From an uncultured Gemmatimonadales bacterium (GTDB taxonomy: Bacteria; Gemmatimonadota; Gemmatimonadetes; Gemmatimonadales; Gemmatimonadaceae), in contig CAWKNZ010000002.1 of NCBI GenBank assembly GCA_963851265.1, positions 320,001 through 384,000 of the forward strand: 64,000 bases of DNA, read 5' to 3'. Both the position numbers and the translations under genes were made by a program. The notes below the pieces were generated by a model. That model worked only from the letters and a program-made list of their open reading frames with translations, did no database searches and was not told where the DNA came from. Of this stretch, positions 1,140-62,341 are shown one piece after another. The stretch's first letter is position 1; every line of letters begins with the position of its first letter.

Positions 1140-1234
1140 GCCGCGCGCCAAGTTAGGCATCGCGGAGGCGCCGCGGCCCGCCGGCGCGAAACACGCCGGT
1201 GCGAAACACGGCGGCGCGTCGCTCGTCTCCTGGT

Positions 1235-2479
1235 ATGCCCGCCGCCCTCAGCGCGCCCGCCGCGCGCGCCCTCACGTCCGGCACCCGGCCGCGCGCTTCG
1301 GACCGTCGCGCCGCGGCGCGCCGCCCGCGCCGCCCCGTCGAGGTCACGGTTCTCCTGCCGTGCCTCAACGAGGCCGCGACCCTCGCGACCTGCATCGACA
1401 AGGCCCGGGGCGCCCTCACCGACCTCGGCGTCGGCGGCGAGGTGCTCGTGGCCGACAACGGCAGCACCGACGGCTCGCCCGACATCGCCCGCGCCCACGG
1501 CGCCCGGGTCGTCCACGTGGCGCGCCGCGGCTACGGCGCCGCGCTCTCGGCCGGCATCGACGCCGCCCGCGGGCGCTGGATCGTCATGGCCGACGCCGAC
1601 GACTCCTACGACCTCGCCGGCCTCGCCCCGTTCATCCGCGCCCTGCAGGACGGCGCGGAACTCGTCATGGGCAACCGCTTTCGCGGCGGCATCGTCCCCG
1701 GCGCGATGCCCGCGCTGCACCGCTATCTGGGCAATCCGGTGCTCACCGGCATCGGCCGCGTGCTCTTCCGCAGCCCGTGCCGCGACTTCCACTGCGGCAT
1801 GCGCGCCTTCTCGCGCGACGCGGTTCGCGCCCTCGCCCTCCGCACCACGGGGATGGAGTTCGCGAGCGAGATGGTCGTCAAGGCGACCCTGCACGGCCTG
1901 CGCGTCGCCGAAGTGCCGACGACCCTCTCGCCCGACGGACGCGGGCGCCCGCCGCACCTGCGCTCGTGGCGCGACGGGTGGCGGCACCTCCGCTTCCTGC
2001 TGCTCTACAGCCCGCGCTACCTCTTTCTGGTCCCGGGCCTCCTGCTCGCCGCACTCGGCGCCGTCGCGATGGCCGCACTCCTCGGCGGTCCGCGCCGTGT
2101 CGGCGCGGTCACCTTCGACGTACACACGCTGCTCTTCGCCGGGGTCGCCGTGGTGACCGGCGCGCAGCTCGGCCTCTTCGCCGCGTTCGCCAAGCTCTTC
2201 GCGACGCACGCCGGCCTCCTCCCCCCCGACGCCCGGCTCGCGCGTCTCGCCCGCCACGCATCGCTCGAGCGCGGCCTCGCCGCGAGCGGCGCCCTGCTCG
2301 CCGCGGGGCTGGCCCTCGCCCTCGCCGCCGTGCACACGTGGCAGGCGGCGGGCTTCGGCCCGCTCGCGATCGGAACAGCGATGCGGCTGTCCGTCCCCGC
2401 CGGCACGCTCATCGTGCTCGGCGTGCAGGGAGTGTTCGCGAGCTTCCTGCTCTCGCTCCTCAGCATCCCGCGTCGTTAG
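1235..2479 (+). CDS. GT2 glycosyltransferase, polyprenol-phosphate (DPM1-like) type with C-terminal TM helices
   Basis: VLLPCLNEA, ADNGSTDGS, GYGAAL, MADADDSYD (DxD), DFHCGMRAF, GMEFASEM, SWRDGWRHLRF; hydrophobic C-terminus. Confidence 0.9.
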   Translation: MPAALSAPAARALTSGTRPRASDRRAAARRPRRPVEVTVLLPCLNEAATLATCIDKARGALTDLGVGGEVLVADNGSTDGSPDIARAHGARVVHVARRGYGAALSAGIDAARGRWIVMADADDSYDLAGLAPFIRALQDGAELVMGNRFRGGIVPGAMPALHRYLGNPVLTGIGRVLFRSPCRDFHCGMRAFSRDAVRALALRTTGMEFASEMVVKATLHGLRVAEVPTTLSPDGRGRPPHLRSWRDGWRHLRFLLLYSPRYLFLVPGLLLAALGAVAMAALLGGPRRVGAVTFDVHTLLFAGVAVVTGAQLGLFAAFAKLFATHAGLLPPDARLARLARHASLERGLAASGALLAAGLALALAAVHTWQAAGFGPLAIGTAMRLSVPAGTLIVLGVQGVFASFLLSLLSIPRR

Positions 2480-2506
2480 GCGCCACCCCTCACCGCTCCG
2501 CCCGCC

Positions 2507-3055
2507 GTGCGCTTCCTCGACCGCGTGCTCCAGCGCTGGCGCATCGTCCGCGCGAGCCCTTGGCTTGCCCCGGGTGCCGAGGTCCTCGACGTCGGGTGCG
2601 CCGACGGCGCGCTCTTCCGTCAGCTGCGCCGTCTCGGCCCCGGCATCGGCGTCGAACCGACGCTCCCCGCCCCGCGGGTCGTCGGACGCTCCGAACTCCG
2701 ACCGGGCCTCGTCCCCGACGCGGTCCCTCCGGGTCGCACCTTCGACGCCGTCACGCTCCTCGCCGTACTCGAGCACGTGCCCACGGCCGCGCAGCGCGCC
2801 CTCGCCGACGCGTGCGCGGCCCTCGTGCGCCCCGGCGGCGTCGCCGTCGTCACGGTCCCCGCGCCCGCCGTCGACCGCGTGCTCGCCGTGCTGCACCGCC
2901 TGCGCCTGGTCGACGGCATGTCGCTCGACGAGCACTTCGGGTTCGAACCGGACGACGTGCCGCGCGTGTTCGCGGCCCCGGAGTGGCGACTCGTGCGGCA
3001 CCAGCGCTTCCAACTGGGCCTCAACAACCTGTTCGTCTTCCGGCGCACGGCCTAA
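2507..3055 (+). CDS. Class I SAM-dependent methyltransferase
   Basis: VLDVGCADG motif I, FDAVTLLAVLEHV, LVRPGG. Confidence 0.85.
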   Translation: MRFLDRVLQRWRIVRASPWLAPGAEVLDVGCADGALFRQLRRLGPGIGVEPTLPAPRVVGRSELRPGLVPDAVPPGRTFDAVTLLAVLEHVPTAAQRALADACAALVRPGGVAVVTVPAPAVDRVLAVLHRLRLVDGMSLDEHFGFEPDDVPRVFAAPEWRLVRHQRFQLGLNNLFVFRRTA

Positions 3056-3075
3056 CCGGCGCGCCTACCGCGGCG

Positions 3076-8254: not shown

Positions 8255-8788
8255 GTGCGCTTCATCGTCTCCGACCCGTTCGGCTGGCGGGTCCTCCTCA
8301 CCGCGCTCCTCGGCGCCGCGTGCGCCACGGACCTGCGCGCGCGCCGCATCCCGAACGCGCTCGTCACAACCGTGTTCGCCGCGGCGCTCCTGCGTACCGT
8401 GATTCCGGCCCTCGCCGGTGCCGCGACCGCGATGCCCGGCTTCGCACCGGGCGTCGGTGCGGCGACGACGGGAGCGCTCTGCGGGCTCGCCCTCTGGCTC
8501 CCGCTGTACGCCGTCGGCGCGTTCGGGGCCGGAGACGTCAAGCTGTTCGCCGCGGCATCGGCCTGGCTCGGTCCGTCGGGGGTGCCGAGCGCGACGCTAT
8601 ACGCGGCCCTCGCCGGCGGCGTGCTCGGCCTCGCGTGGTTCGGCGCGCGCCGCGTCGCCCGGTCCGCGCCGGCGATCGCGCCGCGCATGTACCGCGCACT
8701 GCAGCCGACCGCGACCGGGAGGTCGCGCGTCCCCTACGGGCTGGCCATCACCGCGGGCGTGCTCGGCGTCGTGTGGGGTGCGCCGTGA
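8255..8788 (+). CDS. cpaA: A24 prepilin peptidase CpaA/TadV
   Basis: TDLRARRIPN, FGAGDVKL, VPYGLAI. Confidence 0.9.
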   Translation: MRFIVSDPFGWRVLLTALLGAACATDLRARRIPNALVTTVFAAALLRTVIPALAGAATAMPGFAPGVGAATTGALCGLALWLPLYAVGAFGAGDVKLFAAASAWLGPSGVPSATLYAALAGGVLGLAWFGARRVARSAPAIAPRMYRALQPTATGRSRVPYGLAITAGVLGVVWGAP

Positions 8789-9237
8789 GCGCGCGCCGCG
8801 CCGCGGTGCGATGCCTAACGCGATGGGGCCGCGACGAGCGCGGCGCCGCGCTCGTCGAGTTCGCGATCGTCGTGCCGATGCTGTTGGTGCTCGTCCTCGC
8901 GATCATCGACTTCGGACGCATGATGGCCGTCTCGGCCGGGCTGGCCGCCGCCGCGCGCGAGGGTGCCCGCTACGCCGCCACGAGTTCCAACCCGTCCGAC
9001 GCGACGCAGCAGTCCAACATCAAGGCGCGCGTCATCAACGCGTTCCAGGCGTTCGGGGGTCCGGCGCTCCAGACCACGAACATCGCCGTCTCGGTCGACA
9101 ACTCGGCCGGCAACGTCACCGTCGCCGTCACGGGCTACACGTACAAGCCGATCACGCCCGTGATGACCATGATCGGCGCCGGCACCCTCAACTTCTCGCG
9201 CTCGTCCACGTTCCGCTGGGAACGCAGCTTCTTCTAA
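8785..9237 (+). CDS. tadE: TadE-like minor pilin
   Basis: DERG|AALVEFAIVVPMLL...IIDFGR...AAREGARYA. Confidence 0.9.
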   Translation: MSARRAAVRCLTRWGRDERGAALVEFAIVVPMLLVLVLAIIDFGRMMAVSAGLAAAAREGARYAATSSNPSDATQQSNIKARVINAFQAFGGPALQTTNIAVSVDNSAGNVTVAVTGYTYKPITPVMTMIGAGTLNFSRSSTFRWERSFF

Positions 9238-9263
9238 CGGCGCCCGCCGCGGCATCTCCGCCC

Positions 9264-10388
9264 ATGCTGTCCGACCACCGCTACACCGCCATTTTCGGCG
9301 CCGCCCTGCTCACCGCGAGCGGTGCGACGTTCGCCGTCTACCGCATCCTCGGGACGGCGCGGACGCCTCAGCACGAATCCGTGCGCAGTGTCGTCGTCGC
9401 AGTGCGCGACGTGCCGGTCGGCGTTCCCGTTCCGCGTGAGGCACTCGGGGTAGCCTCTTGGCCGGCGCGCGTCGCGCCGTCCGAAAGCTTCGTCAGCGCC
9501 GATTCGGTCGTCGGCCGCGTGACGCGTGCGCCGCTCATGCCGGGCGAGCCCGTGCTCGTGAGTCGACTCGCCGCGCGCGGCGCCGCGCCAGGGCTGGAAG
9601 GGACGATCGATCCGACCCGTCGCGCCATGGCCGTGCGCGTGAACGAGGCGGCGAGCGTGAGCGGTCTCGTGCGGCAGAACAGCCGCGTCGACGTGCTGAT
9701 GGCCGGCCGAGGAGACGGAACGCAGGCCACCGCCCGCGTGCTGATGAGCGACGTGCGCGTGCTCGGCGTCGGCTCGGTGCGGCCGCCCGACACGCCGGCG
9801 AACGGCGCGCCGCCCGACCCGACGCCCTCGGCGACGACGGCCTCCATCGTCACCCTCGAGGTGACGCCCGCGCAGGCGGAGCAGTTGGCGGCGGCGGAGG
9901 GCCAGGGTGCGATCCAGGTGGTCCTGCGCGGGTACGGAAGCACCGAGGCGGCGGCCGGGGGCATCGCGGCTGGTGCGCTCGTGGCCGCGCCGTCGACGGG
10001 TGCCGGCAGCCTCGGTCCCGCGCCGAGTGGCGCGCTCGGTCTGCTCAGCGCGGCGGGCTCGCCGCCGCCCGCGATGCTCAACTCCGGCGCTCCGCGCGTG
10101 GCCTCGAGCGTCGGTGCTACGCCGGTGGCACACGCACCCCGGGCGTCGCACCACTCCGCACGTCCCGCCGGCGACGCGCGTGCCGTGACGCCTGCGGTGG
10201 CGAGCGCCGCGATCGCCGTGCGAACCCGCCCGGAATCCACCACGGTGCGCGTCTACCGGGGCGGCACGATGACCGTGCTGCGCGTCGAGGCGACCGAGAC
10301 TGCTCCGGCCACCGGGGCCGCGATCCGCGACGCCGAGTCGCGGCCCGTCCGGACGGCGGACGCGCAGTTCGGCCCGCACGCGCCGTAG
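9264..10388 (+). CDS. cpaB: Flp pilus assembly protein CpaB/RcpC (SAF domain)
   Basis: VVVAVRDVPVG, RAMAVRVNEAASVSGLV..SRVDV, DVRVLGVG, VTLEVTPAQAEQL. Confidence 0.9.
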   Translation: MLSDHRYTAIFGAALLTASGATFAVYRILGTARTPQHESVRSVVVAVRDVPVGVPVPREALGVASWPARVAPSESFVSADSVVGRVTRAPLMPGEPVLVSRLAARGAAPGLEGTIDPTRRAMAVRVNEAASVSGLVRQNSRVDVLMAGRGDGTQATARVLMSDVRVLGVGSVRPPDTPANGAPPDPTPSATTASIVTLEVTPAQAEQLAAAEGQGAIQVVLRGYGSTEAAAGGIAAGALVAAPSTGAGSLGPAPSGALGLLSAAGSPPPAMLNSGAPRVASSVGATPVAHAPRASHHSARPAGDARAVTPAVASAAIAVRTRPESTTVRVYRGGTMTVLRVEATETAPATGAAIRDAESRPVRTADAQFGPHAP

Positions 10389-10416
10389 TCGCGCCGAGCG
10401 TCGTACGGTGCGGTGA

Positions 10417-10446
10417 CGAAGGGCGCGCCCAAGGGCGCGCCCTTCG
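10417..10446. other. Perfect 14-bp inverted repeat between cpaB and cpaC
   Basis: cgaagggcgcgccc-aa-gggcgcgcccttcg. Confidence 0.7.
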
Positions 10447-10563
10447 CGCGTCCGGGAGGGCGCCGCGGGGCAAGTGTGCCTCCGCTGAGGTTCGCGCGTC
10501 CATATGCCGAAGTTCTCTGCGGTGCCGACGCATCACCACGCGCCTTTGCTGCGCTGACCCCAC

Positions 10564-11916
10564 ATGACCCGACCCGTGTCCTTCCGAGTAGCCGCCTTCG
10601 TGGCGACGCTCTGCGCCTTCCTGCCAGGCGTCCGGGCCGGCGCCCAACGTGCCGCGTCCCCGGCCGCGCAACGCCAGGCCCCGGATCCCGCGCTCCCCGT
10701 CGTGCAACACGTCCTCGGTGTCGCGCCCGAAACGGACGTCGAGCGCGTGCTCGTCTCCCCGGGGCGCGCGCGTCCGCTCACGCTCGGCGCACCCGTCACG
10801 CGGGTGATCGTCGCCGACACGAGCATCGCGGACGCGCTCGTCGTGAGCGACCGCGACGTCGTGTTCAGCGGGCGGAAGTTCGGCGAAACGGACGTGCTGG
10901 TGTGGAGCGGAGGACGGCGCTTGCACTACCGCACCGTCGTCGCGCCCGCGGCCGACCGTCAGCAGGTGATGCTCGCCGTGAAGTTCGCCGAGGTACGGCG
11001 CGACCTGCTGAAGAACATCGGGCTGTCGCTGCGCGCGCGCCGCGTGACCGGGCGCGACGCCACGGGCGGTGGCTTCGGCTCGCTCGATCCGGCCGGGGTG
11101 GGCGGGTACCTGCCGCAGTCGGCGACCGCCGCGTCGGGCATCACGACCATCATCCCGAGCGCGATCTCGGGTGCCGCGACCGGGTTCGGCACGCTCGTCA
11201 CCGACTTCGGCGCGCGCGGCGTGCTCGCCATGCTCGACCTCGAGGAGCAGCGCGGTAACGCGCACACGCTCGCCGAGCCGACGCTCATGGCCGCGAACCG
11301 CGACTCGGCGTCGTTCCTCGCCGGCGGCGAGTTTCCGGTCCCGGCGGCCGTCTCGCCCGGGGCGGCCGGTACGCCGTACGTCACCATCGTGTTCAAGGAG
11401 TTCGGCGTGCGCCTCGCGTTCACGCCCGAGATCCTCAACGACACGCTCGTCAAGCTGCACGTGCGGCCCGAGGTCTCGAGCCTCGACTACGCCAACGCGG
11501 TCACGCTTTCGGGCGTGAAGATCCCCGCGCTCCGCACGCGCCGCATGGAGAGCACGGTCGACGTGCCGCGCGACCAGAGCCTCATCATTTCGGGCCTGAT
11601 GGACGACGAGCGCGAGAAGGTGCGCACGGGCATCCCCGGGCTCATCGACCTGCCAATCCTCGGGCAGCTGTTCTCCAGCACGCGCTGGACGCGCAGCGAG
11701 ACGGAACTGCTCATCATCGTCACCCCGGTCGTCGTCGACCCGAGCCGGCCGCGCCCGCAGGACGTACTCCGGTTCAAGGCCGACAGTGCGCTCCCCGCGC
11801 ACGAAGTGCTCGACCGGCGTCTCGCCGTGCCGCCGACCCTCCCCGGTTCGCCGCCCGCGCCGACTCCCGCGGGCGCCCAGCCGGCCGCCACTCCCTCCGT
11901 TCCCAAGCAGCCGTGA
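10564..11916 (+). CDS. cpaC: Tad secretin CpaC/RcpA
   Basis: Signal peptide; QVMLAVKFAEV, LAEPTL, ASFLAGGEFPVP, FKEFGVRL, GIPGLIDLPILGQLF, ETELLIIVTP. Confidence 0.95.
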   Translation: MTRPVSFRVAAFVATLCAFLPGVRAGAQRAASPAAQRQAPDPALPVVQHVLGVAPETDVERVLVSPGRARPLTLGAPVTRVIVADTSIADALVVSDRDVVFSGRKFGETDVLVWSGGRRLHYRTVVAPAADRQQVMLAVKFAEVRRDLLKNIGLSLRARRVTGRDATGGGFGSLDPAGVGGYLPQSATAASGITTIIPSAISGAATGFGTLVTDFGARGVLAMLDLEEQRGNAHTLAEPTLMAANRDSASFLAGGEFPVPAAVSPGAAGTPYVTIVFKEFGVRLAFTPEILNDTLVKLHVRPEVSSLDYANAVTLSGVKIPALRTRRMESTVDVPRDQSLIISGLMDDEREKVRTGIPGLIDLPILGQLFSSTRWTRSETELLIIVTPVVVDPSRPRPQDVLRFKADSALPAHEVLDRRLAVPPTLPGSPPAPTPAGAQPAATPSVPKQP

Positions 11917-13142
11917 GCGCAGCCACTCTTCTCTCGCGCGGCGCGCCGGCGGGCGCGTCGCCCGCCGCGGGCGCGCCGACGCGCGTGGTGCTGATTGCCG
12001 GCCTCGCACCGGCGCCCGAGGGCGCCGCGGCGGCCGCGCTCACCCGCGCCGGCTACGGCCCGCCCGGGCGCGTGCCCACGCTCGAGGCGGCGGCGGCGCG
12101 CATCGCCCGCGAGCAGGTCGACCTGCTCATCGTCCCGCTCGACGCGCCGCCGGCGGCGCTCGAGGCGGCCGCGCGCGCCGCGCAGAGCGCCGGCGCCGGG
12201 CTGTTAGGCGCCGCGCCGCGGCTGGAGGCCGGCACGCTGCTCAAGGGCATGCGTGCGGGCGTCCAGGAGTGCCTCGTGACGCCGTTCGACGCCGAAGAGC
12301 TCGAGGGAGCGCTCGAACGCATCGAGCGCCGCGCCTCGGGGGGCGTCACCGCCGGGATGGCGGTCGCGGTCTACAGCGCCAAGGGCGGCGTCGGGACCAC
12401 GACGACCGCCGTGAACCTTTCGCACGCGTACGCCCGCAACAACCCGCGCGCGCGCGTCGCGGTCGCCGACCTCGTCGTGAGCGGCGGCGACGTCGCGGTG
12501 CAGCTCGACATGCTGCCCAAGTACGACATCGGCGCGCTCGCCGGCAAGGCGGGCTCGCTCGACGCCGAGCTCCTGCGCTCGGTGCTCGCCGAGCGCGGCC
12601 CGCGCGAGTGGGTGTTGGCCGCGAGCGAGCGCCCCGAGGTGACCGAGCTCGTCGACGGTACGGCCGCCGGCGCGATCGTCGGTCAGCTGCGGAGCGACTT
12701 CGACTTCACGACCCTCGACTGCGAGCACCACGTGAGCGACCGCTCGCTCGCGGCGCTCGACGCGGCCGACCGCGTCGTGCTCATCACGCAGCTCGCGCTC
12801 GCGCCGCTGCGCAGCGCGCAGCGCTCGCTCGCCCTTTTCGATCGGTTAGGCTACCCGCCGGACCGCGTGCTCGTCGTCGTCAACCGCTACCAGAGTGGCG
12901 ACGTGATCACGCTCGCCGACGCGCAGGAGTCGCTGGAACACGAAATCGCGGCCGCCCTGCCGAACGACTTCCGGGGCTGCGCCGATGCGCTCGCCACCGG
13001 CAAGTCGGTGGTCGAGCACGCGCCCGACTCCGCGCTCGCGCGCGGGTACCTGGAGCTCGCCGCGAAGCTCGGCGGCAGCACGCCCGAAGCGCCGGCGCCG
13101 GTCGCGCGACTCGGGCGGCTGCGGTCGCTCCTGCGGCGCTGA
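11913..13142 (+). CDS. cpaE: CpaE/TadZ (degenerate receiver + MinD/ParA-like ATPase)
   Basis: [24 protein letters not shown] deviant Walker A; LPND..A..G. Confidence 0.9.
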
Positions 13143-13155
13143 GCGGGGATCCGCC

Positions 13156-14739
13156 ATGCCGTACTCCATTCGCGACCGCCTGACGCGCGGCTACACGCCA
13201 GGCTCCGACGCCGCGACGCTGGCGCCGCCCACGACCGCGGCCGACGACCATGCGCCGGCGCCCGCGCCGGCGCCCGACATGCACGCGCCCGCCGCGGCCA
13301 TCGCGCCGGAGCCGCACGTCCCCGATGCATCCGGTCCCGCCCCGGAACCCGCGTCGACCGCGTCGACCGCGTCGACCGCGGCGACCGAGTCCGACGCCGC
13401 CCCGAACACGCGTGGCCAGGGCGCACTGCGCGTCGAGGCGCTCGCCGCCGAGGCGCGACGCGCGCAGGCGGACGCGCCGAGCGCGGTCGAGCAGCTCAAG
13501 GCCGAGCTGCACCGCCGCCTCGTCGACCGCCTCGACCTGAAGGCGCTCGAGAAGCTGCAGGACGAGCACCTGCTCGCCGATCAGGTACGCCGCGGCGTCG
13601 CGGACTTCCTGCGCGCGGAGAGCACGCCGCTCTCCACCGCCGAGCGCGAATCGATCGTCGAGCAGGTGGTGCACGAGGTGCTGGGCCTCGGCCCCATCGA
13701 GCCGCTGTTCCGCGACCCGAAGGTGAGCGACATCCTCATCAACGGGGCGAAGGACATCTGGGTGGAGAAGGGCGGCAAACTGAGCAAGGTCGCGACGCGC
13801 TTCCGCGACGACGCGCACCTCATGGCGGTGATCGACCGGATCGTGAGTCGCGTGGGGCGCCGCGTGGACGAGTCGAGCCCGATGGTCGACGCGCGCCTAC
13901 CCGACGGCTCGCGCGTGAACGCGGTCATCCCGCCGCTGGCGATCGACGGGCCGGTGCTCTCGATCCGCCGCTTCGGCGCGTCGATCACGGCGGAGCAGCT
14001 CGTCGGCTTCGGCGCGTTCACCAACAACATGCTGTTCGTGCTCGCGTCGTGCGTGCGCGCGCGGCTCAACGTACTCGTGTCGGGCGGCACGGGCTCGGGG
14101 AAGACGACGCTGCTCAACGCGCTGTCGTCGTTCATCCCCGACGACCAGCGCGTGGTCACCATCGAGGACGCCGCCGAGCTGCGCCTGCAGCAGGCGCACG
14201 TGGTGCGCCTCGAGACGCGCCCGCCCAACAGTGAGGGCCGCGGCGAGGTGAGCGCGCGCGACCTCGTGAAGAACGCGCTCCGCATGCGTCCCGACCGGAT
14301 CATCGTCGGCGAAACGCGATCGGGAGAAGCGATCGACATGCTGCAGGCGATGAACACGGGGCACGAGGGCTCCATGACGACCGTGCACGCGAACACGCCG
14401 CGCGACGCGATCTCGCGTCTCGAGGTCATGGTGCTGTTTTCGGGGACGAACCTGCCCACGCGCGCGGTGCGCGAGCAGATCGCGTCGGCGGTGAACGTGG
14501 TGGTCCAGGTGTCGCGCCAGGCCGACGGCACGCGTCGCGTCATGAGCATCACCGAGATCACCGGCATGGAGGGCGACATGATCTCCGCGCAGGAGATCTT
14601 CCGCTTCCGCCGCATGGGGCTGAGCCCCGAAGGCAAGGTGCTCGGCAAGTTCGAGGCGAGCGGCGTGCGGCCGATGTTCGCCGACAAGCTCAAGGCGGCC
14701 GGGGCGGACCTGCCCGGCTACCTGTTCGAAACGACGTGA
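13156..14739 (+). CDS. cpaF: CpaF/TadA pilus assembly ATPase
   Basis: [59 protein letters not shown]; Pro/Ala-rich N-terminal extension. Confidence 0.97.
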
Positions 14740-14751
14740 GGAGTTAGGCAG

Positions 14752-15720
14752 ATGCTGTTGCTCACGCTGGCGCTGGTCTTCTGCGGCACGCTCGGCCTCG
14801 TCGCCGGCGGCGCCCTCTTCGCGGACCGCAAGCGGCTCGCGGCGGTGCGTGCGGTGCGCCTGCGGCTCGCCGCCCCGCTGCCGGGGGCGGCGGCCGCCGA
14901 AGGGTCCGTGCGCCTGCTGCGCGGGGCCGACCGCCTGAGTGGCTTCGCGCTGCTCGAGCGCATGCTCACGCGGTGGAACGGGACGGCGCGGATCGCCGAC
15001 GCGCTCCGCCGCGCCGGCGTCGAGCACACCGTCGGCGAGTTCGTGCTCGCGACGGCCGCGGCGGGCGCCGCGGGCCTCGTGCTCGGCGACTTCGTGGCCG
15101 GCGCGGCAGGCGGCATAGGGCTCGCCGCCGTGGCCGGCTTCGCGCCGTGGCTACTCGTCTGGCGCCTCACCAAGACCCGCATCGCGGGCTTCGAGGCGCA
15201 ACTCCCGGAGGCGCTCGACGCGATCGTGAACTCGCTCAAGGCCGGGTACTCGTTCCCGGCCGCGCTGGAGTTCGCCGCAGGCGAGGTCCCGGCCCCGCTG
15301 GGCCCTGAACTGGCCCGCGTGCGCGACGAGCAGCGGCTCGGCGTCGAGGCCCGCCCCGCGCTCGCCGCGATGGCCGACCGCGTCGGCACCGCCGACATGC
15401 GCATGTTCGTCACCGCCGTACTCGTGCAGCGCGAGACCGGCGGTAACCTTGCCGAACTGCTCGCCGACCTCGCCACGCTCGTCCGCGACCGCGCCGCCTT
15501 CCGCGGGCGCGTGGCCGCCCTCACCGCGGAGCCGCGCATGAGCGCGATCGTGCTCGCACTGCTGCCGGTGTCGCTGTTCGCCATCCTGTTCGTGCTCAAC
15601 CGGCCCTACATGCAGCCGCTCGTCAGCACGCCGTTCGGGCGCCTGCTGCTCATCACGTCGTCCGTCCTGTCGGTGGGCGGCTACCTCGTGATGCGCAAGC
15701 TCGGCGACGTGGAGCTCTGA
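14752..15720 (+). CDS. tadB: TadB (T2SSF-family platform)
   Basis: FEAQLPEALDAIVNSLKAG, QRETGGNLAELL, ALTAEPRMSA. Confidence 0.93.
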   Translation: MLLLTLALVFCGTLGLVAGGALFADRKRLAAVRAVRLRLAAPLPGAAAAEGSVRLLRGADRLSGFALLERMLTRWNGTARIADALRRAGVEHTVGEFVLATAAAGAAGLVLGDFVAGAAGGIGLAAVAGFAPWLLVWRLTKTRIAGFEAQLPEALDAIVNSLKAGYSFPAALEFAAGEVPAPLGPELARVRDEQRLGVEARPALAAMADRVGTADMRMFVTAVLVQRETGGNLAELLADLATLVRDRAAFRGRVAALTAEPRMSAIVLALLPVSLFAILFVLNRPYMQPLVSTPFGRLLLITSSVLSVGGYLVMRKLGDVEL

Positions 15721-15721
15721 C

Positions 15722-16678
15722 GTGGCCGCCGCTCCGCACCTCGCGCCGTTGTGGCTCGCGGCGTTCTGCATCACGGTCGCGACGCTCGCCGTCGCGGCCG
15801 CGGCGTCGGCCTGGGTCGCCCAGAGCGGCCGCCGCGCCGTGCTCGCGCGCCTCGCCCGGCGCCGGGCGGCGGGATCGTTCAGGGCGTTAGGCGTGTCAGG
15901 AGAGTTCGGGGAGGCGGAGGTCGGCCCCGCGCGCGCGCGGGCCGCCGCGTTCCTCGCGCGCGTGGTGCCGCCCGGCATGCGCGACAAGGCGACGCTCGAC
16001 CGCCTGGCGCAGGCGGGCTTCCACGAGCCCGATGCGGTGCTCTTCTACGCCGCCGCGCGGGTGCTCGCGCCGGTCCTCGGCCCGCTGCTCGTCGTGCTCG
16101 GGACCGGGCTCCAGGCCGGGCCGGGAGGTGGCAGCCCCGCGCCGCTCGCGCTCGGGCTCGGCCTGCTCGCGGGAATGACCCTGCCGTCCGCCATCCTCGA
16201 CCGACAGGCCGGGACGCGGCGGACCGCGCTCACGCTCGCGATCCCCGATGCGCTCGACCTGCTGATCGTCTGCCTCGAGGCTGGCGTCGGGCTCGACGCC
16301 GCGCTCGTCCGCGTGGCGCGCGAGCTCGCGCCGTCGCACCCGATTCTCGCCGCCGAGATGGAGAGCGTGACGCGCCGCGTCGGCGCCGGGCTGCCGCGCG
16401 ACGAGGCGCTCCGGACACTCGTCGTGCGCACCGGCATCGACGACATGCGCGCGATCGTCTCGACCATGATCCAGGCCGAGCGCCTCGGCACGTCGCTCGC
16501 GCGCGTGCTGCGCATTCACGGCGAGTCGCTGCGCTCGCGGCGCAAGCAGCTCGCCGAGAAGCGTGCGGCGCAGGCGAGCGTGAAGATGATGATTCCCCTC
16601 GTGACGTTCCTGCTCCCCGCGTTCTTCATCGTGGTGTTGGGGCCGGCCGTCCTCAGTATGATGGCGAATTCGAAGTGA
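15722..16678 (+). CDS. tadC: TadC (T2SSF-family platform)
   Basis: IPDALDLLIVCLEAGVGLDAAL, QAERLGTS, KMMIPLVTFLLPAFFIVVLGP. Confidence 0.93.
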   Translation: MAAAPHLAPLWLAAFCITVATLAVAAAASAWVAQSGRRAVLARLARRRAAGSFRALGVSGEFGEAEVGPARARAAAFLARVVPPGMRDKATLDRLAQAGFHEPDAVLFYAAARVLAPVLGPLLVVLGTGLQAGPGGGSPAPLALGLGLLAGMTLPSAILDRQAGTRRTALTLAIPDALDLLIVCLEAGVGLDAALVRVARELAPSHPILAAEMESVTRRVGAGLPRDEALRTLVVRTGIDDMRAIVSTMIQAERLGTSLARVLRIHGESLRSRRKQLAEKRAAQASVKMMIPLVTFLLPAFFIVVLGPAVLSMMANSK

Positions 16679-23827: not shown

Positions 23828-23984
23828 GGGCGGGGAACATAGTGCCGCCCCCGGCTTCGAGCCGCGGCTTCCGACGTAGCGGTCGGGCGTGGCATCATCC
23901 CCCGGGTTGCGCGGTGGCCGTGCGACGGTAGCGTACGTCGCGCCCCTCCCGGTCGCGTGCAGTGTGCGCATCGCCAACGGTCCC

Positions 23985-24647
23985 GTGACCCGCCCTCTCG
24001 CCCCTGCACGCCGCAGGATCGCCGTCGGTCTCGGGCTCGCCCTTGCCGTCGGGCCGAGGATTGCGGCGGGACAGATCGTGTACCGGTCCGCCAACATCGC
24101 GATTCCGGCATACGGCCCGGCCGTGTTCCTGAATGTCGTCGACGGCAGCTACACCACGGACCACTCCCCAACCTGCCCAGGACCGGGGTGTAATTTCGAC
24201 GTTGGGGTCGTCCACGACGGGTACAATTTCTTTGCCGCGTTCGCGCCCACGTCGTATGGCGTCGATCCGGCGCCCGTGGCTCCCGACGCGCGCGGGGTGA
24301 CGGCGTCCCTCGCGCCCGGCGCGCCGGTCGGGGCGTCGACCACGTTCAGCGACGACGCGATTCTGTTCGCGCCATACGAGCCCGGCGCTCCGGCACAGTT
24401 GATCGGGATCCGGTTCCGCGACGAGGCGGCCAACACGGTGAACTTCGGGTGGGCGCGTATCGAACTCGCGATGAGAACGGTCCAGTATCGCATTCTCGAC
24501 TACGCGTTCGAGGCCACGCCCGGGCGGGCGATCGCCGCCGGCGACATCGGGGGGGCCGCGGTCGTGCCGGAGCCCCGCGCGGTGTTGCTCGTCGGCACGG
24601 GGCTTCTCGTACTCGGCGCAGCGGCCCGGCGCGCGCGTCGCGCCTAA
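23985..24647 (+). CDS. Secreted PEP-CTERM protein
   Basis: Signal peptide; C-terminal VPEP + TM helix + RRARRA; FGWARI..DYAFE..PG..I.AG. Confidence 0.8.
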   Translation: MTRPLAPARRRIAVGLGLALAVGPRIAAGQIVYRSANIAIPAYGPAVFLNVVDGSYTTDHSPTCPGPGCNFDVGVVHDGYNFFAAFAPTSYGVDPAPVAPDARGVTASLAPGAPVGASTTFSDDAILFAPYEPGAPAQLIGIRFRDEAANTVNFGWARIELAMRTVQYRILDYAFEATPGRAIAAGDIGGAAVVPEPRAVLLVGTGLLVLGAAARRARRA

Positions 24648-25156
24648 CCCTCGCGCTCGCCTCGGCCGGCGTCGCCCTTGAGCGCGTCGTCCAGCGCGCC
24701 CCACGCGAGCGTCGCGCAGCGGATGCGTGCCGGGAACCGCGACACGCCCTGCAGCGCGCGCATCTCCCCCATCGCCTTGTCGGCAGCGGCTTCGGCGTCC
24801 CCGTGCGCGAGCGCCACGAAGCGCCGCACCAGCGACTCCGCTTCCGCGCGCGTCTTGCCGCGGACGGCCTGCGTCAGCATCGACGCGGACGCCTGCGAGA
24901 TGGAGCAGCCGCGGCCGGTGAACCGCGCCTCGCGCACCACGTCGCCGTCGAGCGCGACTTCCAGCGAGATCTCGTCGCCGCACAGCGGGTTGCGCCGTTC
25001 GGCGGCGAGGTCGGGTGCGTCGAGCACGCCCTTGCCGCGCGGACGTCGGTAGTGGTCGAGGATGATGTCCTGGTAGATCGCCGCGAGCCGGGCGTCCGAG
25101 TCGGGACGGGCGCCGTCGGGCCGTGCGGCCTCGGGACGGTCAGCGATGTCGGCCAT
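24644..25156 (-). CDS. sufU: SufU Fe-S scaffold/sulfur acceptor
   Basis: YQDIILDHYRRPR, NPLCGDEI, GCSISQASAS, RIRCATLAW. Confidence 0.95.
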   Translation of the reverse strand: MADIADRPEAARPDGARPDSDARLAAIYQDIILDHYRRPRGKGVLDAPDLAAERRNPLCGDEISLEVALDGDVVREARFTGRGCSISQASASMLTQAVRGKTRAEAESLVRRFVALAHGDAEAAADKAMGEMRALQGVSRFPARIRCATLAWGALDDALKGDAGRGEREG

Positions 25157-27875: not shown

Positions 27876-28624
<749 letters not shown>

Positions 28625-36214: not shown

Positions 36215-36257
36215 CGACGCGCCGGGCGTTCGACGTGGCCGCGATCCGCCGCTCGCG

Positions 36258-36650
36258 TTAGGGCTTGTACGTGATCGGAAGCTGGACGCGGGCGCGGACG
36301 GCCGATCCGTCCTTCTTCCCCGGCACGAATTCCATCTTCTCGACCACCGACTTCGCCGCGCCGGCGAGGCTGGGCGTCGACGCCGACACGACTTCGATGC
36401 TGCTCGGCTCGACGTGCCCGTCCTTGTTGATGGTGAACATGATCTGGACGGTGCCGCTCACGTTCGCGCGACGCAGGTCCTCAGGCATCGAGCGCGCGAT
36501 GAGGCGCGCGGTGGCCGCGGGGGAGACGAGCTTCGGCGGCGAGCTCAGATCTTCTCCGCCGTAGACGTCGGCCGCTTGGGCGTGTGCGAACGTCGGGATG
36601 GCGAGCGCGGCGACGAGGCCGAGGGCGGCGGGAAACGTGCGAGCGAACAT
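36258..36650 (-). CDS. Small secreted TonB C-terminal-domain protein
   Basis: Signal peptide AHA|Q; P..LRRANVSGTV..F.INKDG.V...FVPGKKDG.AV. Confidence 0.8.
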   Translation of the reverse strand: MFARTFPAALGLVAALAIPTFAHAQAADVYGGEDLSSPPKLVSPAATARLIARSMPEDLRRANVSGTVQIMFTINKDGHVEPSSIEVVSASTPSLAGAAKSVVEKMEFVPGKKDGSAVRARVQLPITYKP

Positions 36651-36827
36651 GGGAAGGATTTCGAGGGAGGCCGACGATGTCACGATGACGCGGGCCACGG
36701 TCGTGGCGCCGAAGCATCGGGCCGTGAGCAGGAACGTCGGCATCTCCGCGGCGAAAGTTGAACGCGCGTTTGGAGCTAAGTCGCTGCTCCGTAGACGCTT
36801 ATCGACCCGTCATGATCCGACGCACGC

Positions 36828-54263: not shown

Positions 54264-56375
<2,112 letters not shown>

Positions 56376-56436
56376 ACGGTGCAACTATTTGGGCGGTGTG
56401 GCGTGCTGCGTCGCGGCCCGGATTTAGGTTGGGCGC

Positions 56437-56820
56437 ATGCGAAACCTAGTGTGGGCCGAGGTGGGGCTCGTGGCCGCGGGCGGGGCGCTCGGGTGCGTGT
56501 CGCGGTACGTCGCGGCGCTCGCGGCGGGCCCGGTGTCGGCGGGGTTTCCGTGGGGGACGTTCGCGATCAACGTCGTCGGGTCGTTCGTGCTCGGCGCGCT
56601 GCTCGGCGGGCTGCCGCCGGGGCACGCGGGGCGGTTGCTGTTCGGGACCGGATTCTGCGGCGGGTTCACGACGTTCTCGACGTTCAGTACGGAGGTCGTC
56701 GGGCTCGTCGAGCGCGGGGCGTGGGGGCGGGCCGGGGTGTACGCGGGCGGGAGCGTGCTGGCCGGCGTGCTGGCGGCGGCAGCCGGAATCGCGGTGGGGC
56801 GGGTGGTGGTGACGCGGTAG
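56437..56820 (+). CDS. crcB: Fluoride channel Fluc/CrcB
   Basis: GGALG..RY, FPWGT..IN..GSF, GFCGGFTTFSTF. Confidence 0.95.
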   Translation: MRNLVWAEVGLVAAGGALGCVSRYVAALAAGPVSAGFPWGTFAINVVGSFVLGALLGGLPPGHAGRLLFGTGFCGGFTTFSTFSTEVVGLVERGAWGRAGVYAGGSVLAGVLAAAAGIAVGRVVVTR

Positions 56821-56917
56821 CGCTGATGCCGGGGCGGGCGGAGCCGCTGCGCGTCTCCTCGCTGCGATCGAGCGCGCCTGCGAGGGCGCCCGCCGCCCGC
56901 CGGCTCAGGGGTGCGTG

Positions 56918-57727
56918 TTAGGCAGCCGCGGCGCGCAGTGCGGCCGCGGCGTGCGGTGCGGCCGCGACGACTTCGGCGGGGGCGGTGGTGCGGGCGCGGG
57001 CGGCTTCGGTTCGGGCGAGTTCGGTGAGGGCGTCGCGCATCGCGGATTCGCCGCCGAACTGGAAGCCGAGTTGCGAGGCGTAGGCGGCGCACGCGTCGAG
57101 CTTGGCGGCGAAGGCCGCCTCCGTGGGGTGGAGGGCGACGTCGACGAGATCGTGGGCGATAGGGTCGGGCGGAAGGGCGCCGGGGTGGCGGATGACGTAC
57201 GGGGTGTCGCGGTACCATGCCGTGGCGAGGGGGCGGCCGGCGGCGGCGCGGGTGTGCGCGATCTCGCGCACCGCGCGGACGACGTGCCGGTGGTCGGCGT
57301 GGCCGCCGATGGCCTGGGGAGCGAAGACGAGGGCGGGGGCGAGTTCGTCGACGAGCGCGGCGACGTCGGCTGCGACGGCGCGCCACGCGTCGGCGTCGGC
57401 GGGATGCACGCCGGCGAAGAGGGCGGCGGCGGAGTGGTAGCCGCGGTGCGGGGCCTCGGCGTGCGCGAGCCAGCGGACGGAGGCAGCGCCTAACGCACGC
57501 GCCGCCTCGGCGTCCTCGGCGCGGCGGAGGGCCATGTAGTCGACGTCGGCACCGAGGCCCTTGTCGGTCTGGCAGGCGAGGGCGAAGCCCCGCGGATCGG
57601 GGATGGAGCGGGTGAAGACGGTGACGAGGTGCGCGTCCCAGCCGCCCGCGGCGAGCGCGGCGAACGCGGCGCCGCAACTGAACGCGACGTCGTCGAGGTG
57701 CGGCGAGAGGAAGAGTGCGTTGGGCAC
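56918..57727 (-). CDS. PIG-L/LmbE-family deacetylase
   Basis: LSPHLDD, RRAED, GGHADH, Y.D.PY, AYASQ. Confidence 0.9.
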   Translation of the reverse strand: MPNALFLSPHLDDVAFSCGAAFAALAAGGWDAHLVTVFTRSIPDPRGFALACQTDKGLGADVDYMALRRAEDAEAARALGAASVRWLAHAEAPHRGYHSAAALFAGVHPADADAWRAVAADVAALVDELAPALVFAPQAIGGHADHRHVVRAVREIAHTRAAAGRPLATAWYRDTPYVIRHPGALPPDPIAHDLVDVALHPTEAAFAAKLDACAAYASQLGFQFGGESAMRDALTELARTEAARARTTAPAEVVAAAPHAAAALRAAAA

Positions 57728-57741
57728 GGCGGGCGGCGCGC

Positions 57742-58998
57742 TCAGAGTAGGTGCGGGGCGGCGCGGAAGCGGCAGGGGTCGATGGCGTCGTCGAACGGCC
57801 ACCACCGGTCGGGGCCGCGGTAGTCGCGCACGACCCGTGCGTACTCGCCGACGATCTGCCGCGCGATGGCGGGCCACGAATAGGTGGCGCGCACCTCCGC
57901 GAGGGCGGCGGCGGCGAGGCGCGCGCGGAGTGGGGCGTCGTCGAGGATGCGCGCGAGGGCGGCCGTGAGGGCGGGCACGTCGCCCGGGCCGACGAGCAAG
58001 CCGTTCTCGCCGTCGCGCAGACAGTCGACCACGCCCACGGTGCGGGTGCTGACGACGGCGAGTCCACTCGCCATCGCTTCGAGGATGGTGTTGCTGAACC
58101 CCTCGGCGTAGGTCGGGGAGACGAATACGTCGCCGCCGTGGTAGACGCGCGGCACGTCGTCGTACGCCGCGGGGCCGCGGAGCGTAACGCGGTCGGTGAG
58201 GCCGAGTTCGCGCGTGCGCTCGGCGACGGCGGCGGAGTCGGGGCCGATACCCGAGACGACGAGGCGCGCGGGGCGGCCGCCGCACGTCAGGGCGGCGAAT
58301 GCATCGAGCAGGTCGAGCGCGCCCTTGCGACGGTCGACGCGGCCGTGGTACACGAGCCGCGGCTCGTCGGGGTCGACGAGGGCGCCGGGGGTCCAGCCCC
58401 CGCGCGGGGTGAAGCGGGTGACGTCGACCGCACCGGGAACGATGGTGAGGCGGTCGAGCGCGACGCCGAGGTTGGCGTGCACCTCCTCGGCGAAGGAGCG
58501 GGCGCCGATGAGGAGGGCGTCGGCGTGGGCGAGGACGGCCTGCATGGCGCGGCGGTGGGTGCCGCAGCAGAGGCCGACCCAGTGCCCGTCGCCGCCCTGG
58601 ATGCTCACCACGACGGGGAGGCCGAGGCGGCGACCGGCTTCGAGGGCGGCGAAGCCGTTGGGGTAGCCGTACTGGGCGTGGAGGAGGTCGAAGGGGCGCT
58701 CGGCGTGGAGCCGCTCGACGAGGGCGACGCGGGTGTGGAGGTCGCGCTCGAAGTCGGCGGCGGCGCCGGCCGTCGCGGCGGCCTCGCCCGCGCTCTCGAC
58801 GCCGACCACGCGCACGCCGGCGACGGCCGGGGGCGGCCCGCCGCCGTAGACGGCGGTGCCGGCGGCGTCGGCGCGATAGTCGGAGAGCATGGTCACGTCA
58901 TGGCCTAACGCGACGAGCTCCCGCAGGAGGTTGGCGGCGTAGACGCTCATCCCCGAGACCGCGGGGAAGAAGCGGCGGGAGAGGAAGCAGACGCGCAT
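57742..58998 (-). CDS. GT4 glycosyltransferase
   Basis: FFPAVSGM, GRVDRRKG, EGFSNTILEAMASG (E-x7-E), GENGLLV. Confidence 0.92.
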   Translation of the reverse strand: MRVCFLSRRFFPAVSGMSVYAANLLRELVALGHDVTMLSDYRADAAGTAVYGGGPPPAVAGVRVVGVESAGEAAATAGAAADFERDLHTRVALVERLHAERPFDLLHAQYGYPNGFAALEAGRRLGLPVVVSIQGGDGHWVGLCCGTHRRAMQAVLAHADALLIGARSFAEEVHANLGVALDRLTIVPGAVDVTRFTPRGGWTPGALVDPDEPRLVYHGRVDRRKGALDLLDAFAALTCGGRPARLVVSGIGPDSAAVAERTRELGLTDRVTLRGPAAYDDVPRVYHGGDVFVSPTYAEGFSNTILEAMASGLAVVSTRTVGVVDCLRDGENGLLVGPGDVPALTAALARILDDAPLRARLAAAALAEVRATYSWPAIARQIVGEYARVVRDYRGPDRWWPFDDAIDPCRFRAAPHLL

Positions 58999-59843: not shown

Positions 59844-59846
59844 GGC

Positions 59847-61376
59847 CTAACGGGTTGCGGTGGCTGGCGCGTTCTCGGCCGCGGCGGCTGCGGCCGCGGC
59901 CGAGAACGCCAGGACGTGCTCGCCGGGCTCGCGGTAGAGGGCGTAGAGGCGGCCGAGCCGGCGTTCCGCCTCGGCGACGTCGAACCAGCCGCTGCCGCCG
60001 AGTTCGGCCTCGGCCTCGGCGGTGAGCGGCACGCGAGCGACGCCGTCGGGGAGGTCGAGGTTGCCGCCGTGGGCGTTGATCCCGCCGAGTCCGTCGCCGC
60101 GTTCGGCGAGGAGTTGGAGGCCGCGCGGGCCGACGCGGTGGTAGCTCATGCCCTCGACCTCGAGCTCGGGGACGAGCACCTTGACCGCGCGCGACGGCGC
60201 GCCCGGCGCGGTCACGTCGACGTACCACACCTGCAGCTCGTCGCGATCCAACCGTTCGGTGACGTCGGCGAGGAGGGCAGCGGGGTCGTCGAGCGCGCCC
60301 GCCGGGACGGTGGGCAGGTCGGAGAACGGAACGCGCCGCCGCACCGAGAGGACGGTGTCGCGGATCATCGCTACGACCGCGTCGGGGCCCTGGGCCATCA
60401 GGTCGCGCATCGCGGCGAGCGCGCGGCCCTCCTCGTCCCACCCGGGCGGGTTGCGTTCGAGCCGGGCGCGGTAGTCGTCGGGGAGCAGCGGCGAGACGAC
60501 GTCCCAGCGGTCGTGCGCGAAGCGCTTGCGCACCCGGCTCGAGCAGAATTCCAGCATGGCCTTGCGGAGTGCGCGCTCCCGGTCGGGGTGGGCGGCCTCG
60601 CCGCAGGCGGTGAGCATGATCGGGTGCGGCGCCCGGCGCGGGTCGCGTTCGCCGCCGACCACGTACACGTTCGCGATCCCGAACGCGGTGGAGGCGAGCT
60701 TGGGGAGGACCTCGATGCCCGCGGCGTCGAGCCGGGCGCGGAGGTCCCGGACGACGGGGTCGGTGACGGCGTCGAGGTCGATGGCGACGCCCTGGTCGAG
60801 GGCGCGGTAGGCGAGCGAGTTGCCGTCGCGCTGGACGAGCTCGAGCAGGCCGTGGGCGAGGGCGCGTTCGAGCGTGTCGCCCGCGCCCATGCCGTTGGTG
60901 ATGGGCGTGAAGAGCCACTCGCCGGGGCCGGTGTCGCCGACGTTGCTCGCCGCGTACTCGAGCGGGACCCAGCGGCGGGCGCCGTCGGGCCATCGCACCG
61001 CCTCGACCCACTGCAGCGGGCGGTCGTGCGTGTAGCCGGTCCCGACCGGGAGTCGGCACTCGAGCGGGTCGAGGGCGAGGGTGCCCGCGCGGCGGAGTTC
61101 GTTGTAGCTGCCCGACCGGCGCGGGAGCGACCGGAACGACGCGAAGGTGCTGTAGGTCTCGACCATCTCGCCTAACGCACTGGCGCGGGCGGTGTGGTCG
61201 TCCGCGCCGTACCCGACGCCGGTGAGGGCTATGTCGTCGGGGGTGAACGCGGCGGCGTAGTAGACCGGAACGTCGAGCACGTCAAGCGCGTGGAGCGGGA
61301 ACTCGTAGCGCTCGAAGTCCGGGGGGATGGTTGCCCGGTACGCGGCGGCGGCGCGGGCGAGGGGGGCGTCGGTCAC
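59847..61376 (-). CDS. YcaO-family ATP-dependent amide-activating enzyme
   Basis: GVGYG...SALGEMVE, TNGMGAG....ALAHGLLELVQRD, GEAAHPD..RALRKAMLE, VKVLVPELE. Confidence 0.88.
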   Translation of the reverse strand: MTDAPLARAAAAYRATIPPDFERYEFPLHALDVLDVPVYYAAAFTPDDIALTGVGYGADDHTARASALGEMVETYSTFASFRSLPRRSGSYNELRRAGTLALDPLECRLPVGTGYTHDRPLQWVEAVRWPDGARRWVPLEYAASNVGDTGPGEWLFTPITNGMGAGDTLERALAHGLLELVQRDGNSLAYRALDQGVAIDLDAVTDPVVRDLRARLDAAGIEVLPKLASTAFGIANVYVVGGERDPRRAPHPIMLTACGEAAHPDRERALRKAMLEFCSSRVRKRFAHDRWDVVSPLLPDDYRARLERNPPGWDEEGRALAAMRDLMAQGPDAVVAMIRDTVLSVRRRVPFSDLPTVPAGALDDPAALLADVTERLDRDELQVWYVDVTAPGAPSRAVKVLVPELEVEGMSYHRVGPRGLQLLAERGDGLGGINAHGGNLDLPDGVARVPLTAEAEAELGGSGWFDVAEAERRLGRLYALYREPGEHVLAFSAAAAAAAAENAPATATR

Positions 61377-61417
61377 AGGCACACGGTCTCGGGGCGACGT
61401 GAAGGGGAGTGGCGCGC

Positions 61418-62341
61418 TCAACCGGCGGTCACCACCCGTCCCGCGCCGTGCGCCGCCCGCCAGGCGCGCTCGGGCACGCGCTCGCCCGTGGGGGCGCCGC
61501 CAGGGCCTAACACGACGCGGTCGGTGAACGGGTGCGGGGCGGCGAGGGCCAGATCGAGTAGGGCGCGCGCGGCCGGCATGCCGCCCGCGCGCACGACCTC
61601 CCACGGCGTCACGACGACGGCGGCGTCGACCGGGGCGAGGGTGCGCGCGTAGCCGGCGATCTGCGCGCGGGTGAGCGGGAGGTCGGCGTCGAACGCGAGG
61701 TGGGTGCTCACGCTCGTCGCCGCGCCCGCGGCGTCGACGGTGAACTTGAACGCATCGCCGCAGAAGAGGGTGCGGCGGGCCCGGCCCGCGTGCGGCGCGT
61801 CGTCCCAGACGAGCGCGGTGTGGCCCGGCGTGTGGCCGCCCGTGTGGACGAGGGCGACGCCCGGCGCGAGGTCGGCGCGGTCGTCGAAGGCCCACGACAC
61901 CGGCAGCGCCTTGGCGAAGCCGAGGTCGTCGCGGTGGAGTACGAGTTCGGGCGAGAACCGTTCGCACACGCGCCAGAGCGCGCCGTAGACGTGCGGGTGC
62001 GAGGCGGCGGCCCAGCGCACGCCGCCCGCGTCGGCGATCGCGTCGAGCGCCGCGTCGTCGTACCAGCCGCACCCCTCGAACGCGACGTTGCCATGCGGCG
62101 TGCGCAGGAGATAGCCCGACGGGCCGATGCCGATGGCCGGGCTCGCCGTGACGGCGAGAACGTCGGGCAGCACCTCCTCGACCGCGCACCGCGAGCGGGC
62201 GGCCACCGCGGCGGCGGTCGTGAAGCGCCACCCGTCGTCGGGGAGCGGGTGGCGGAAGTCCTCGCAGACGGGGCAGGCGGCCGGGGCGAAGTGGCGCTGC
62301 CAGAAGCCGCAGTGCTCGCAGACGAAGTACGCGAGAGGCAT
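61418..62341 (-). CDS. MBL-fold hydrolase with N-terminal CxxC...CxxC zinc-ribbon/rubredoxin-like module
   Basis: CEHCG...CPVCEDFR; SHPHVYG; GGHTPGH; LFCGD. Confidence 0.8.
   Translation of the reverse strand: MPLAYFVCEHCGFWQRHFAPAACPVCEDFRHPLPDDGWRFTTAAAVAARSRCAVEEVLPDVLAVTASPAIGIGPSGYLLRTPHGNVAFEGCGWYDDAALDAIADAGGVRWAAASHPHVYGALWRVCERFSPELVLHRDDLGFAKALPVSWAFDDRADLAPGVALVHTGGHTPGHTALVWDDAPHAGRARRTLFCGDAFKFTVDAAGAATSVSTHLAFDADLPLTRAQIAGYARTLAPVDAAVVVTPWEVVRAGGMPAARALLDLALAAPHPFTDRVVLGPGGAPTGERVPERAWRAAHGAGRVVTAG

Follow-up and report, generated by a model that had tools for sequence, protein, structure and literature searches.

Genome words of the uptake type are known from two proteobacterial families, the Neisseriaceae with their DNA uptake sequences (DUS) and the Pasteurellaceae with their uptake signal sequences (USS), while the cyanobacterial case, HIP1 (GCGATCGC), is a proposal. 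DUS and USS have a length of 9–12 bp. A dedicated uptake-sequence receptor, ComP, is found in the Neisseriaceae; to our knowledge, the reader of the Haemophilus uptake sequence has not yet been named. Chi and KOPS are over-represented 7–8-mers that are read by a DNA motor and are strongly skewed to one replication strand. The integron core site, GTTRRRY with GTTAGGC as its canonical form, ends the attC site, an imperfect palindrome of ~60–130 bp with the order R''-L''...L'-R'. Here, we describe an asymmetric word, (C/T)GTTAGGC, that is dispersed over a 64-kb stretch of DNA from an uncultured Gemmatimonadales bacterium (referred to as the window; G000:C2:320001-384000) and over the remainder of the same assembly (G000; 4.60 Mb in 12 contigs, 73% GC, 94% complete). 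We tentatively suggest that this word is an uptake-type self-DNA tag of the DUS/USS kind, read by an accessory protein.

For the described systems, Findlay and Redfield tabulated 1,471, 765 and 1,892 uptake sequences per genome and discussed the interplay of these sequences with reading frames and peptides (PMC2817400; this and all other articles are cited from extracts). The function of HIP1 was long obscure and is now linked to transformation (PMC5861425, PMC13756078), HIP1 being proposed as an uptake signal on grounds similar to those given below (PMC13756078). Our literature search found no paper that uses the word analyzed here as a genomic signal and no paper on Gemmatimonad uptake sequences.

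In the window, the word is distributed as follows:

1152..61511, both strands (16 copies each): dispersed GTTAGG/CCTAAC word, 32 copies by window counts, 30 of them GTTAGGC and 21 CGTTAGGC

By comparison, 100 dinucleotide shuffles gave 5.91 ± 2.43 copies of GTTAGG (largest value 14), and 1.23 copies of CGTTAGGC were expected; read from the 10-mers, 23 of the 32 copies extend to CGTTAGG. A preliminary description made from the window alone had reported 32 copies, a 16:16 strand split and 30 and 23 extensions to GTTAGGC and CGTTAGG, all of which we reproduced exactly, and its assumed GC content of ~74% agrees with the 73% measured for the genome. The enrichment is real and genome-wide: G000 contains 1,848 GTTAGG, 1,762 GTTAGGC (885 forward, 877 reverse) and 1,396 CGTTAGGC. 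Among all 7-mers and 8-mers of the genome, over-representation is highest for this word, the observed/expected ratios (O/E) being 14–28 under order-2 and order-3 Markov models (ranking was done at orders 2–4; a maximum-order ranking is uninformative, as the word dominates its own sub-words). Its density, about one copy per 2.6 kb, is of the same order as that of the uptake sequences listed by Findlay and Redfield (PMC2817400) and lies between 0.33 and 0.55 per kb on all 12 contigs, so that the enrichment extends well beyond the window.

A logo of the genome-wide copies reads Y (C 0.79, T 0.14) G T T A G G C (0.95), followed by G at 0.53 or A at 0.22, with no conservation outside positions -1 to +7 and no flanking palindrome. 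Specificity over these 7–8 bp is sharp; the first base of xTTAGGC in G000 is G in 1,762 cases, A in 14, C in 10 and T in 8. The variant GTTGGGC, earlier called frequent as well, is only mildly so (1,393 copies; O/E 2.5 at order 1 and 1.28 at order 0), although it does occur at orthologous word positions in relatives.

The coding context of the copies was analyzed genome-wide with crude gene calls based on third-position GC content (GC3; 2,425 open reading frames [ORFs] covering ~75% of G000). The called ORFs contain 1,089 copies, as compared to 67.7 ± 10.5 after synonymous codon shuffling within genes (10 shuffles), a 16-fold excess that bears out the earlier claim against a codon-aware null. 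Among the 1,762 copies, 750 lie in the sense phase G-TTA-GGC, 203 in the antisense phase G-CCT-AAC, 73 in GC-CTA-AC, 56 in GTT-AGG-C, 50 and 75 in the two stop-codon phases and 555 outside called ORFs. When expressed as the share of synonymous opportunities taken, the word occupies 12.5% of xxG-Leu-Gly (751/5,989), 20.9% of xxG-Pro-Asn (208/996), 10.6% of xGC-Leu-ACx (74/700) and 1.7% of Val-Arg-Cxx (56/3,227) sites. Occupancy per opportunity is thus similar in both orientations, indicating that the excess of sense copies stems from the proteome rather than from transcription. Gene ends are used in the same way, with the word supplying stop codons in both orientations: GCC-TAA-C closes 87 of 549 Ala-ending genes, and xGT-TAG-GC closes 54 of the 774 genes that are able to have it. 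Of 1,114 TTA codons in called ORFs, 751 fall within G-TTA-GGC; TTA is therefore mostly, but not "essentially", confined to the word as had been stated. With both orientations filled alike per opportunity and every frame as well as stop codons in use, these observations support the earlier proposal that the force on the word operates at the level of DNA rather than of RNA or protein. None of the three outcomes that the preliminary description had named as refuting it was seen: the counts do not fall to the codon-aware null, TTA codons lie mostly within the word, and the enrichment is not limited to the window.

Copies of the word appear and are lost in situ. Regions syntenic with the window are present in three genomes of the same genus (G001, G002 and G004) at ~80% nucleotide identity, and at the 32 window sites these relatives have the word in some cases and GTTCGGC, GTTGGGC, GCTCGGC or similar in others. 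A/T-ending codons were retained at 14 of 26 positions inside the word vs 942 of 2,364 elsewhere, a small and non-significant difference; density is maintained rather than particular positions. As a separate observation on one of these relatives, an 80-kb syntenic stretch of G004 (G004:C1:845001-925000; L035-L038) contains 76 runs of eight G (or C) vs 4 expected, an excess not seen in the other genomes sampled.

Among genomes, the state of the word is all-or-none, and the word is off in most relatives. We surveyed 401 genomes of the phylum, scoring as rich those with 300 or more copies of the word and a count no lower than twice that of a reversed-word control (the unpublished genomes G011, G085, G203 and G124 are counted as word-poor rows here and in the integrase tallies below, and enter into nothing else). 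Seventeen of the 401 were rich, 13 in family f1 and four in f2, with none among the 135 genomes of families f4–f12; an additional tally by the same criterion found two f3 genomes, G036 and G040, rich as well. All five genomes of the same genus as G000 are rich (727–2,415 CGTTAGGC each), and in genus g48 three genomes have 3,479–4,141 copies and one has 66. In each of the six further rich genomes that were sampled (G001, G002 and G004, congeneric with G000; G012, G040 and G008 of three other genera), this word again ranks first among k-mers, across GC contents of 62–74%; in G012 (62.5% GC, 1.95 GTTAGG per kb), the emphasis is shifted slightly to CGTTAGG(C/T). At the 29 loci nearest the ComEC alignment that are titled as Gemmatimonad metagenome-assembled genomes, the word count was 0 in 27, 1 in one and 13 in one (8.9 kb). 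Mapping the rich state onto a ComEC tree (40 genomes) takes a minimum of nine changes, at least six of them forced by well-supported branches, this being a single-gene tree built by a quick method and without G099 (truncated frame), G218, G021 and G089. The early f1 branches are all rich, which fits an old presence of the word followed by many losses.

These data require a DNA-level process with a sequence-specific, often-lost reader; that the process is uptake, and that one reader gene exists, is what we infer. If the word is an uptake tag, the uptake route would include a sequence-specific protein that binds word-bearing double-stranded DNA and favors its import; candidates for this reader would be a pilus-associated or periplasmic receptor acting with a type IV pilus, ComEA, ComEC and DprA. 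Imported conspecific DNA would recombine into the genome, so that point mutations creating the word would spread and those destroying it would be replaced, a molecular drive that might operate with or without selection. The word would settle where it is cheapest, namely in Leu-Gly and Pro-Asn codon pairs, at stop codons and in spacers. Its reader would be encoded by an accessory gene with a history of repeated loss, and after each loss codon bias would erase the word.

The word resembles DUS and USS in several respects. As in those systems, the word is short and non-palindromic, has copies in the thousands on both strands, lies inside genes in the cheapest frames with the matching peptides raised, evolves in place by point mutation and occurs in some related genera, although most genera have none. 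It differs from them in being 7–8 bp long, in its genus-by-genus presence or absence without a dialect in two poor genera, in the small number of inverted pairs and in its use of the rarest codons. With HIP1 it shares the character of a hyper-abundant 8-mer in genes that is lost in some lineages; unlike HIP1, a palindrome recognized by two methylases, it is asymmetric, and no intact patchy methylase was found in G000 among the five Pfam families searched.

The window illustrates how the word is accommodated. Using a gene list curated from GC3 and Pfam, the 32 copies comprise 11 TTA-GGC, five CCT-AAC, two CTA-ACG, three GTT-AGG, seven at stop codons (2475, 3051, 24643, 33925, 36257, 56917 and 59846) and four in uncalled sequence. 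The split given in the preliminary description (15 TTA-GGN, 6 CCT-AAC, 2 CTA-ACG, 7 stops and 2 intergenic) agrees for the stops and CTA-ACG; the other classes differ through gene calls, and no GTT-AGG class had been listed. Representative copies and the pilus locus of the window are:

2475..2480, plus strand: copy forming the TAG stop of a family-2 glycosyltransferase gene (1199-2479)
3051..3056, minus strand: copy forming the TAA stop (GCC-TAA-C) of a methyltransferase-domain gene (2507-3055)
8320..16678, plus strand: Tad/Flp pilus locus with TadE-like, secretin, ParA-like, CpaF ATPase and two TadB/C genes
12203..12208, plus strand: G-TTA-GGC (Leu-Gly, the dominant class) in a TadZ-like gene, retained in G001, G002 and G004
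24643..24648, minus strand: single copy closing two convergent ORFs, as TAA of 23889-24647 (plus strand) and TAG of 24644-26089 (minus strand, NifU_N)
28517..28522, plus strand: antisense copy as CCT-AAC (Pro-Asn) in a G-P-N-G motif, flanked by two SufB/D genes (SufC-type ATPase by position)

The copy at 24643 had been described as the stop of two convergent genes, and it indeed ends ORFs on both strands, but the plus-strand ORF 23889-24647 had no Pfam match. Two further copies stand at the ends of ORFs on both strands, 36257-36262 (35752-36261, plus; 36258-36743, minus) and 56917-56922 (55926-56921, plus; 56918-58285, minus); at both, Pfam support is limited to the minus-strand genes.

General uptake genes are present in G000, which encodes ComEC, a ComEA-type HHH_3 protein, DprA, two PilA-like pilins, two minor-pilin clusters and a PilQ-like secretin. 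Several of these genes, together with other candidate reader families, were compared between 22 rich and 22 poor genomes:

ComEC: 22/22 rich, 20/22 poor
HHH_3 (ComEA type): 22/22 rich, 22/22 poor
PilA-like pilin: 22/22 rich, 21/22 poor
411-aa minor pilin: 19/22 rich, 15/22 poor
Ortholog of the window's Tad secretin (at least 46% identity, E ≤ 1e-90): 7/22 rich, 6/22 poor
1,141-aa Eco57I-type protein: 22/22 rich, 22/22 poor
Vsr: 2/22 rich, 8/22 poor; not found in G000
RecC: 2/22 rich, 1/22 poor; not found in G000

None of these families, nor the integron integrase IntI (see below), tracks the on/off pattern, and a 330-aa minor pilin did not follow the word on a five-genome panel. The Tad/Flp locus had been put forward as the uptake machine; as its secretin does not track the word, this idea fails. 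What stands of the earlier interpretation is the DNA-level, non-polar nature of the word, for which uptake remains the best analogy.

Several observations weigh against an uptake tag. No candidate reader was found among the families tested, and as all uptake genes compared are also present in poor genomes, the machinery explains nothing about the on/off pattern. ComP_DUS (PF16732) had no match in G000, although control genomes gave no match either, which makes this negative of little weight. One-off variants of the word are not enriched, as seen from the xTTAGGC counts, and inverted pairs are few, with 19 of 46 adjacent pairs less than 200 bp apart inverted. Neisseriaceae have DUS dialects (PMC3630211), whereas in the poor genomes G006 and G021, sampled at 400 kb each, no comparable substitute word was found. 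Finally, an uptake tag leaves the identity of the word with the integron core unexplained.

An alternative, which we consider rather unlikely, is that the word is bound by an accessory protein of the chromosome (nucleoid-associated, or acting in segregation or occlusion), with sites every ~2–3 kb whose density is kept by selection and which decay once the gene is lost. The sharp 7–8-bp specificity, the all-or-none distribution and the even density on all contigs would suit such a protein, as would the shortage of close pairs; spacing at short range is more even than random, with 174 gaps of 50–500 bp vs 273 expected from an exponential distribution. Moreover, the longest word-free gap of G000 (45,086 bp, C1:182876-227962, P ~ 5e-5) spans gidA, parA, parB and mnmE, dnaA (C1:12048-12530) lies inside another word-free gap of 15 kb, and density around gidA is about twofold low in G001 (27 per 100 kb) and G004 (33 per 100 kb). 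However, exclusion of the word from the origin region was rejected, as the gap is not conserved in G304 (76 GTTAGG per 100 kb around gidA) or G401 (95 per 80 kb, some inside gidA), in both of which the density of the gidA region is about that implied by the whole-genome 8-mer count. Individual copies are also weakly conserved in position, and we know of no chromosome-protein family that uses an asymmetric 7-mer at such density. A search with a parS-type consensus allowing up to two mismatches gave no match.

Drive linked to modification or repair, in which a methyltransferase marks the word and short-patch repair or another methylation-dependent step favors it, appears improbable. Patchy distribution is typical of modification genes, and the word has adenines on both strands. 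Elhai proposed such a drive for HIP1, and HIP1 with its orphan methylases offers a precedent (PMC4390886, PMC13756078). However, Vsr is more frequent in poor than in rich genomes (see the list above), and C-to-T repair would be unable to build the TTA core against 73% GC. Within the five Pfam families searched, no methylase co-occurs with the word. G000 had no match to PF01555, PF00145 or PF02086, with the qualification that the assembly is 94% complete and that no search was made for other methylase families. PF02384 (N6_Mtase) is represented in G000 by frame-broken pieces at two contig ends (C7:771474-772495 and C9:923-1858), spread over several frames, and by one weak match inside the Eco57I-like ORF; the pieces represent type I-like methylase genes that have decayed, or else a misassembled repeat. 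The sole intact Eco57I-type protein (G000:C7:582086-585511, minus strand; N6-adenine methylase domain, NPPW motif) is present in 44/44 genomes, with ~50–58% identity in most other genera of the family and ~40% in sister families, a conservation unusual for a restriction-type enzyme. The earlier suggestion of a methylation-linked motif is weakened accordingly.

A slimmer chance attaches to a Chi-like self signal that would tame a helicase-nuclease (AddAB/AdnAB type) or a defense nuclease and so spare the cell's own DNA. An over-represented 7–8-mer has the format of Chi, and in one stretch of C2 there is a mild excess on the presumed leading strand (Leu-Gly 103/736 vs 17/198, Pro-Asn 11/39 vs 14/106), although the comparison is partly circular, because "leading" was set by gene orientation. 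Unlike Chi and KOPS, the word is balanced between strands over the genome (885 vs 877), and binned counts corrected for coding opportunity showed no consistent replication-linked skew and no clear switch, with origin and terminus unmapped because the GC skew of G000 is too weak. The lack of a strong replication skew sets the word apart from both Chi and KOPS. Furthermore, RecC was found in just 3/44 genomes, G000 not among them (no search was made for AddAB or AdnAB), and the enrichment of Chi in E. coli is few-fold, well below the 14–28-fold seen here.

The preliminary description overlooked that the word is spelled, letter for letter, as the integron attC/attI core: GTTAGGC is the R' box and its complement, the inverse core GCCTAAC, the R'' box, and arrays of this order use the same spelling. 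In the poor genomes G025 and G027, dense same-strand runs of the word are classic cassette arrays, with attC sites composed of GCCTAAC(A), an imperfect palindrome of ~85 bp and (C)GTTAGGC. In G000, only eight attC-like GCCTAAC...GTTAGGC pairs at 40–160 bp were found, i.e. 16 of 1,762 copies (<1%); four lie at the end of C10 and one, at C6:1592-1702, beside intI. In contrast to attC, more than 99% of copies stand alone in ordinary genes, without the ~90-bp imperfect palindrome. Nor does word abundance follow the integrase, of which it is independent in spite of the common spelling: in a first panel of 41 genomes, IntI exceeded the curated cut-off in 6/11 rich, 2/4 intermediate and 17/26 poor genomes. 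It is in pieces in G001 and G012 and was not found above cut-off in G002, G008 or G018. In G000, intI is split into model positions 2-265 and 260-313, ~2 kb apart (G000:C6:3005-6044, L178), with a gene for a large serine recombinase (Resolvase, Recombinase and Zn-ribbon domains) between the pieces on the opposite strand. The last 35 kb of C10 (G000:C10:183629-214564) contain 32 copies (0.9 per kb), the four attC-like pairs mentioned above and short ORFs; this region is probably the integron's cassette array, parted from intI by a contig break.

One way to accommodate the shared spelling, although we regard it as a long shot, is an uptake receptor that reads the integron core itself, which would give competent cells a preference for importing cassette DNA of any origin. 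Each gene cassette carries the word twice, as R'' and R', and would thereby be favored for import whatever its source; the genome-wide copies would then be a by-product, or the self-tag side, of a cassette-harvesting receptor. In Vibrio, transformed single strands feed chromosomal integrons (PMC12614218). Least probable of all, copies could be sites for an integron integrase or another cassette-world recombinase, as secondary or attG-like sites or cassette seeds; the match to the R' and R'' boxes in the arrays of G025, G027 and G000, a -1 base that is C or T genome-wide as in R' (C) and R'' (T), and the insertion of cassettes at genomic sites by integrases (10.1101/2022.09.11.507474) speak for this, but the IntI distribution with the split gene of G000, the mere eight attC-like pairs, the lack of a flanking palindrome in the logo, the requirement of attG for GWT only (10.1101/2022.09.11.507474) and the harm that recombination within genes would cause speak against it.

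Taken as an uptake tag read by an accessory protein, the word lends itself to a search for that protein: with at least 6–9 on/off changes within one order, correlation with gene families, as done for HIP1 (PMC13756078), has real power to name the reader. For annotation, the word accounts for most TTA codons and many TAA/TAG stops in word-rich genomes. The spelling that it shares with the integron core suggests a testable connection of transformation with cassette capture, and a receptor reading that core would, if it exists, couple natural transformation to integron gene capture. A further case of an uptake tag, in a soil phylum rich in uncultured members, would, if true, show such tags to be a general bacterial device.

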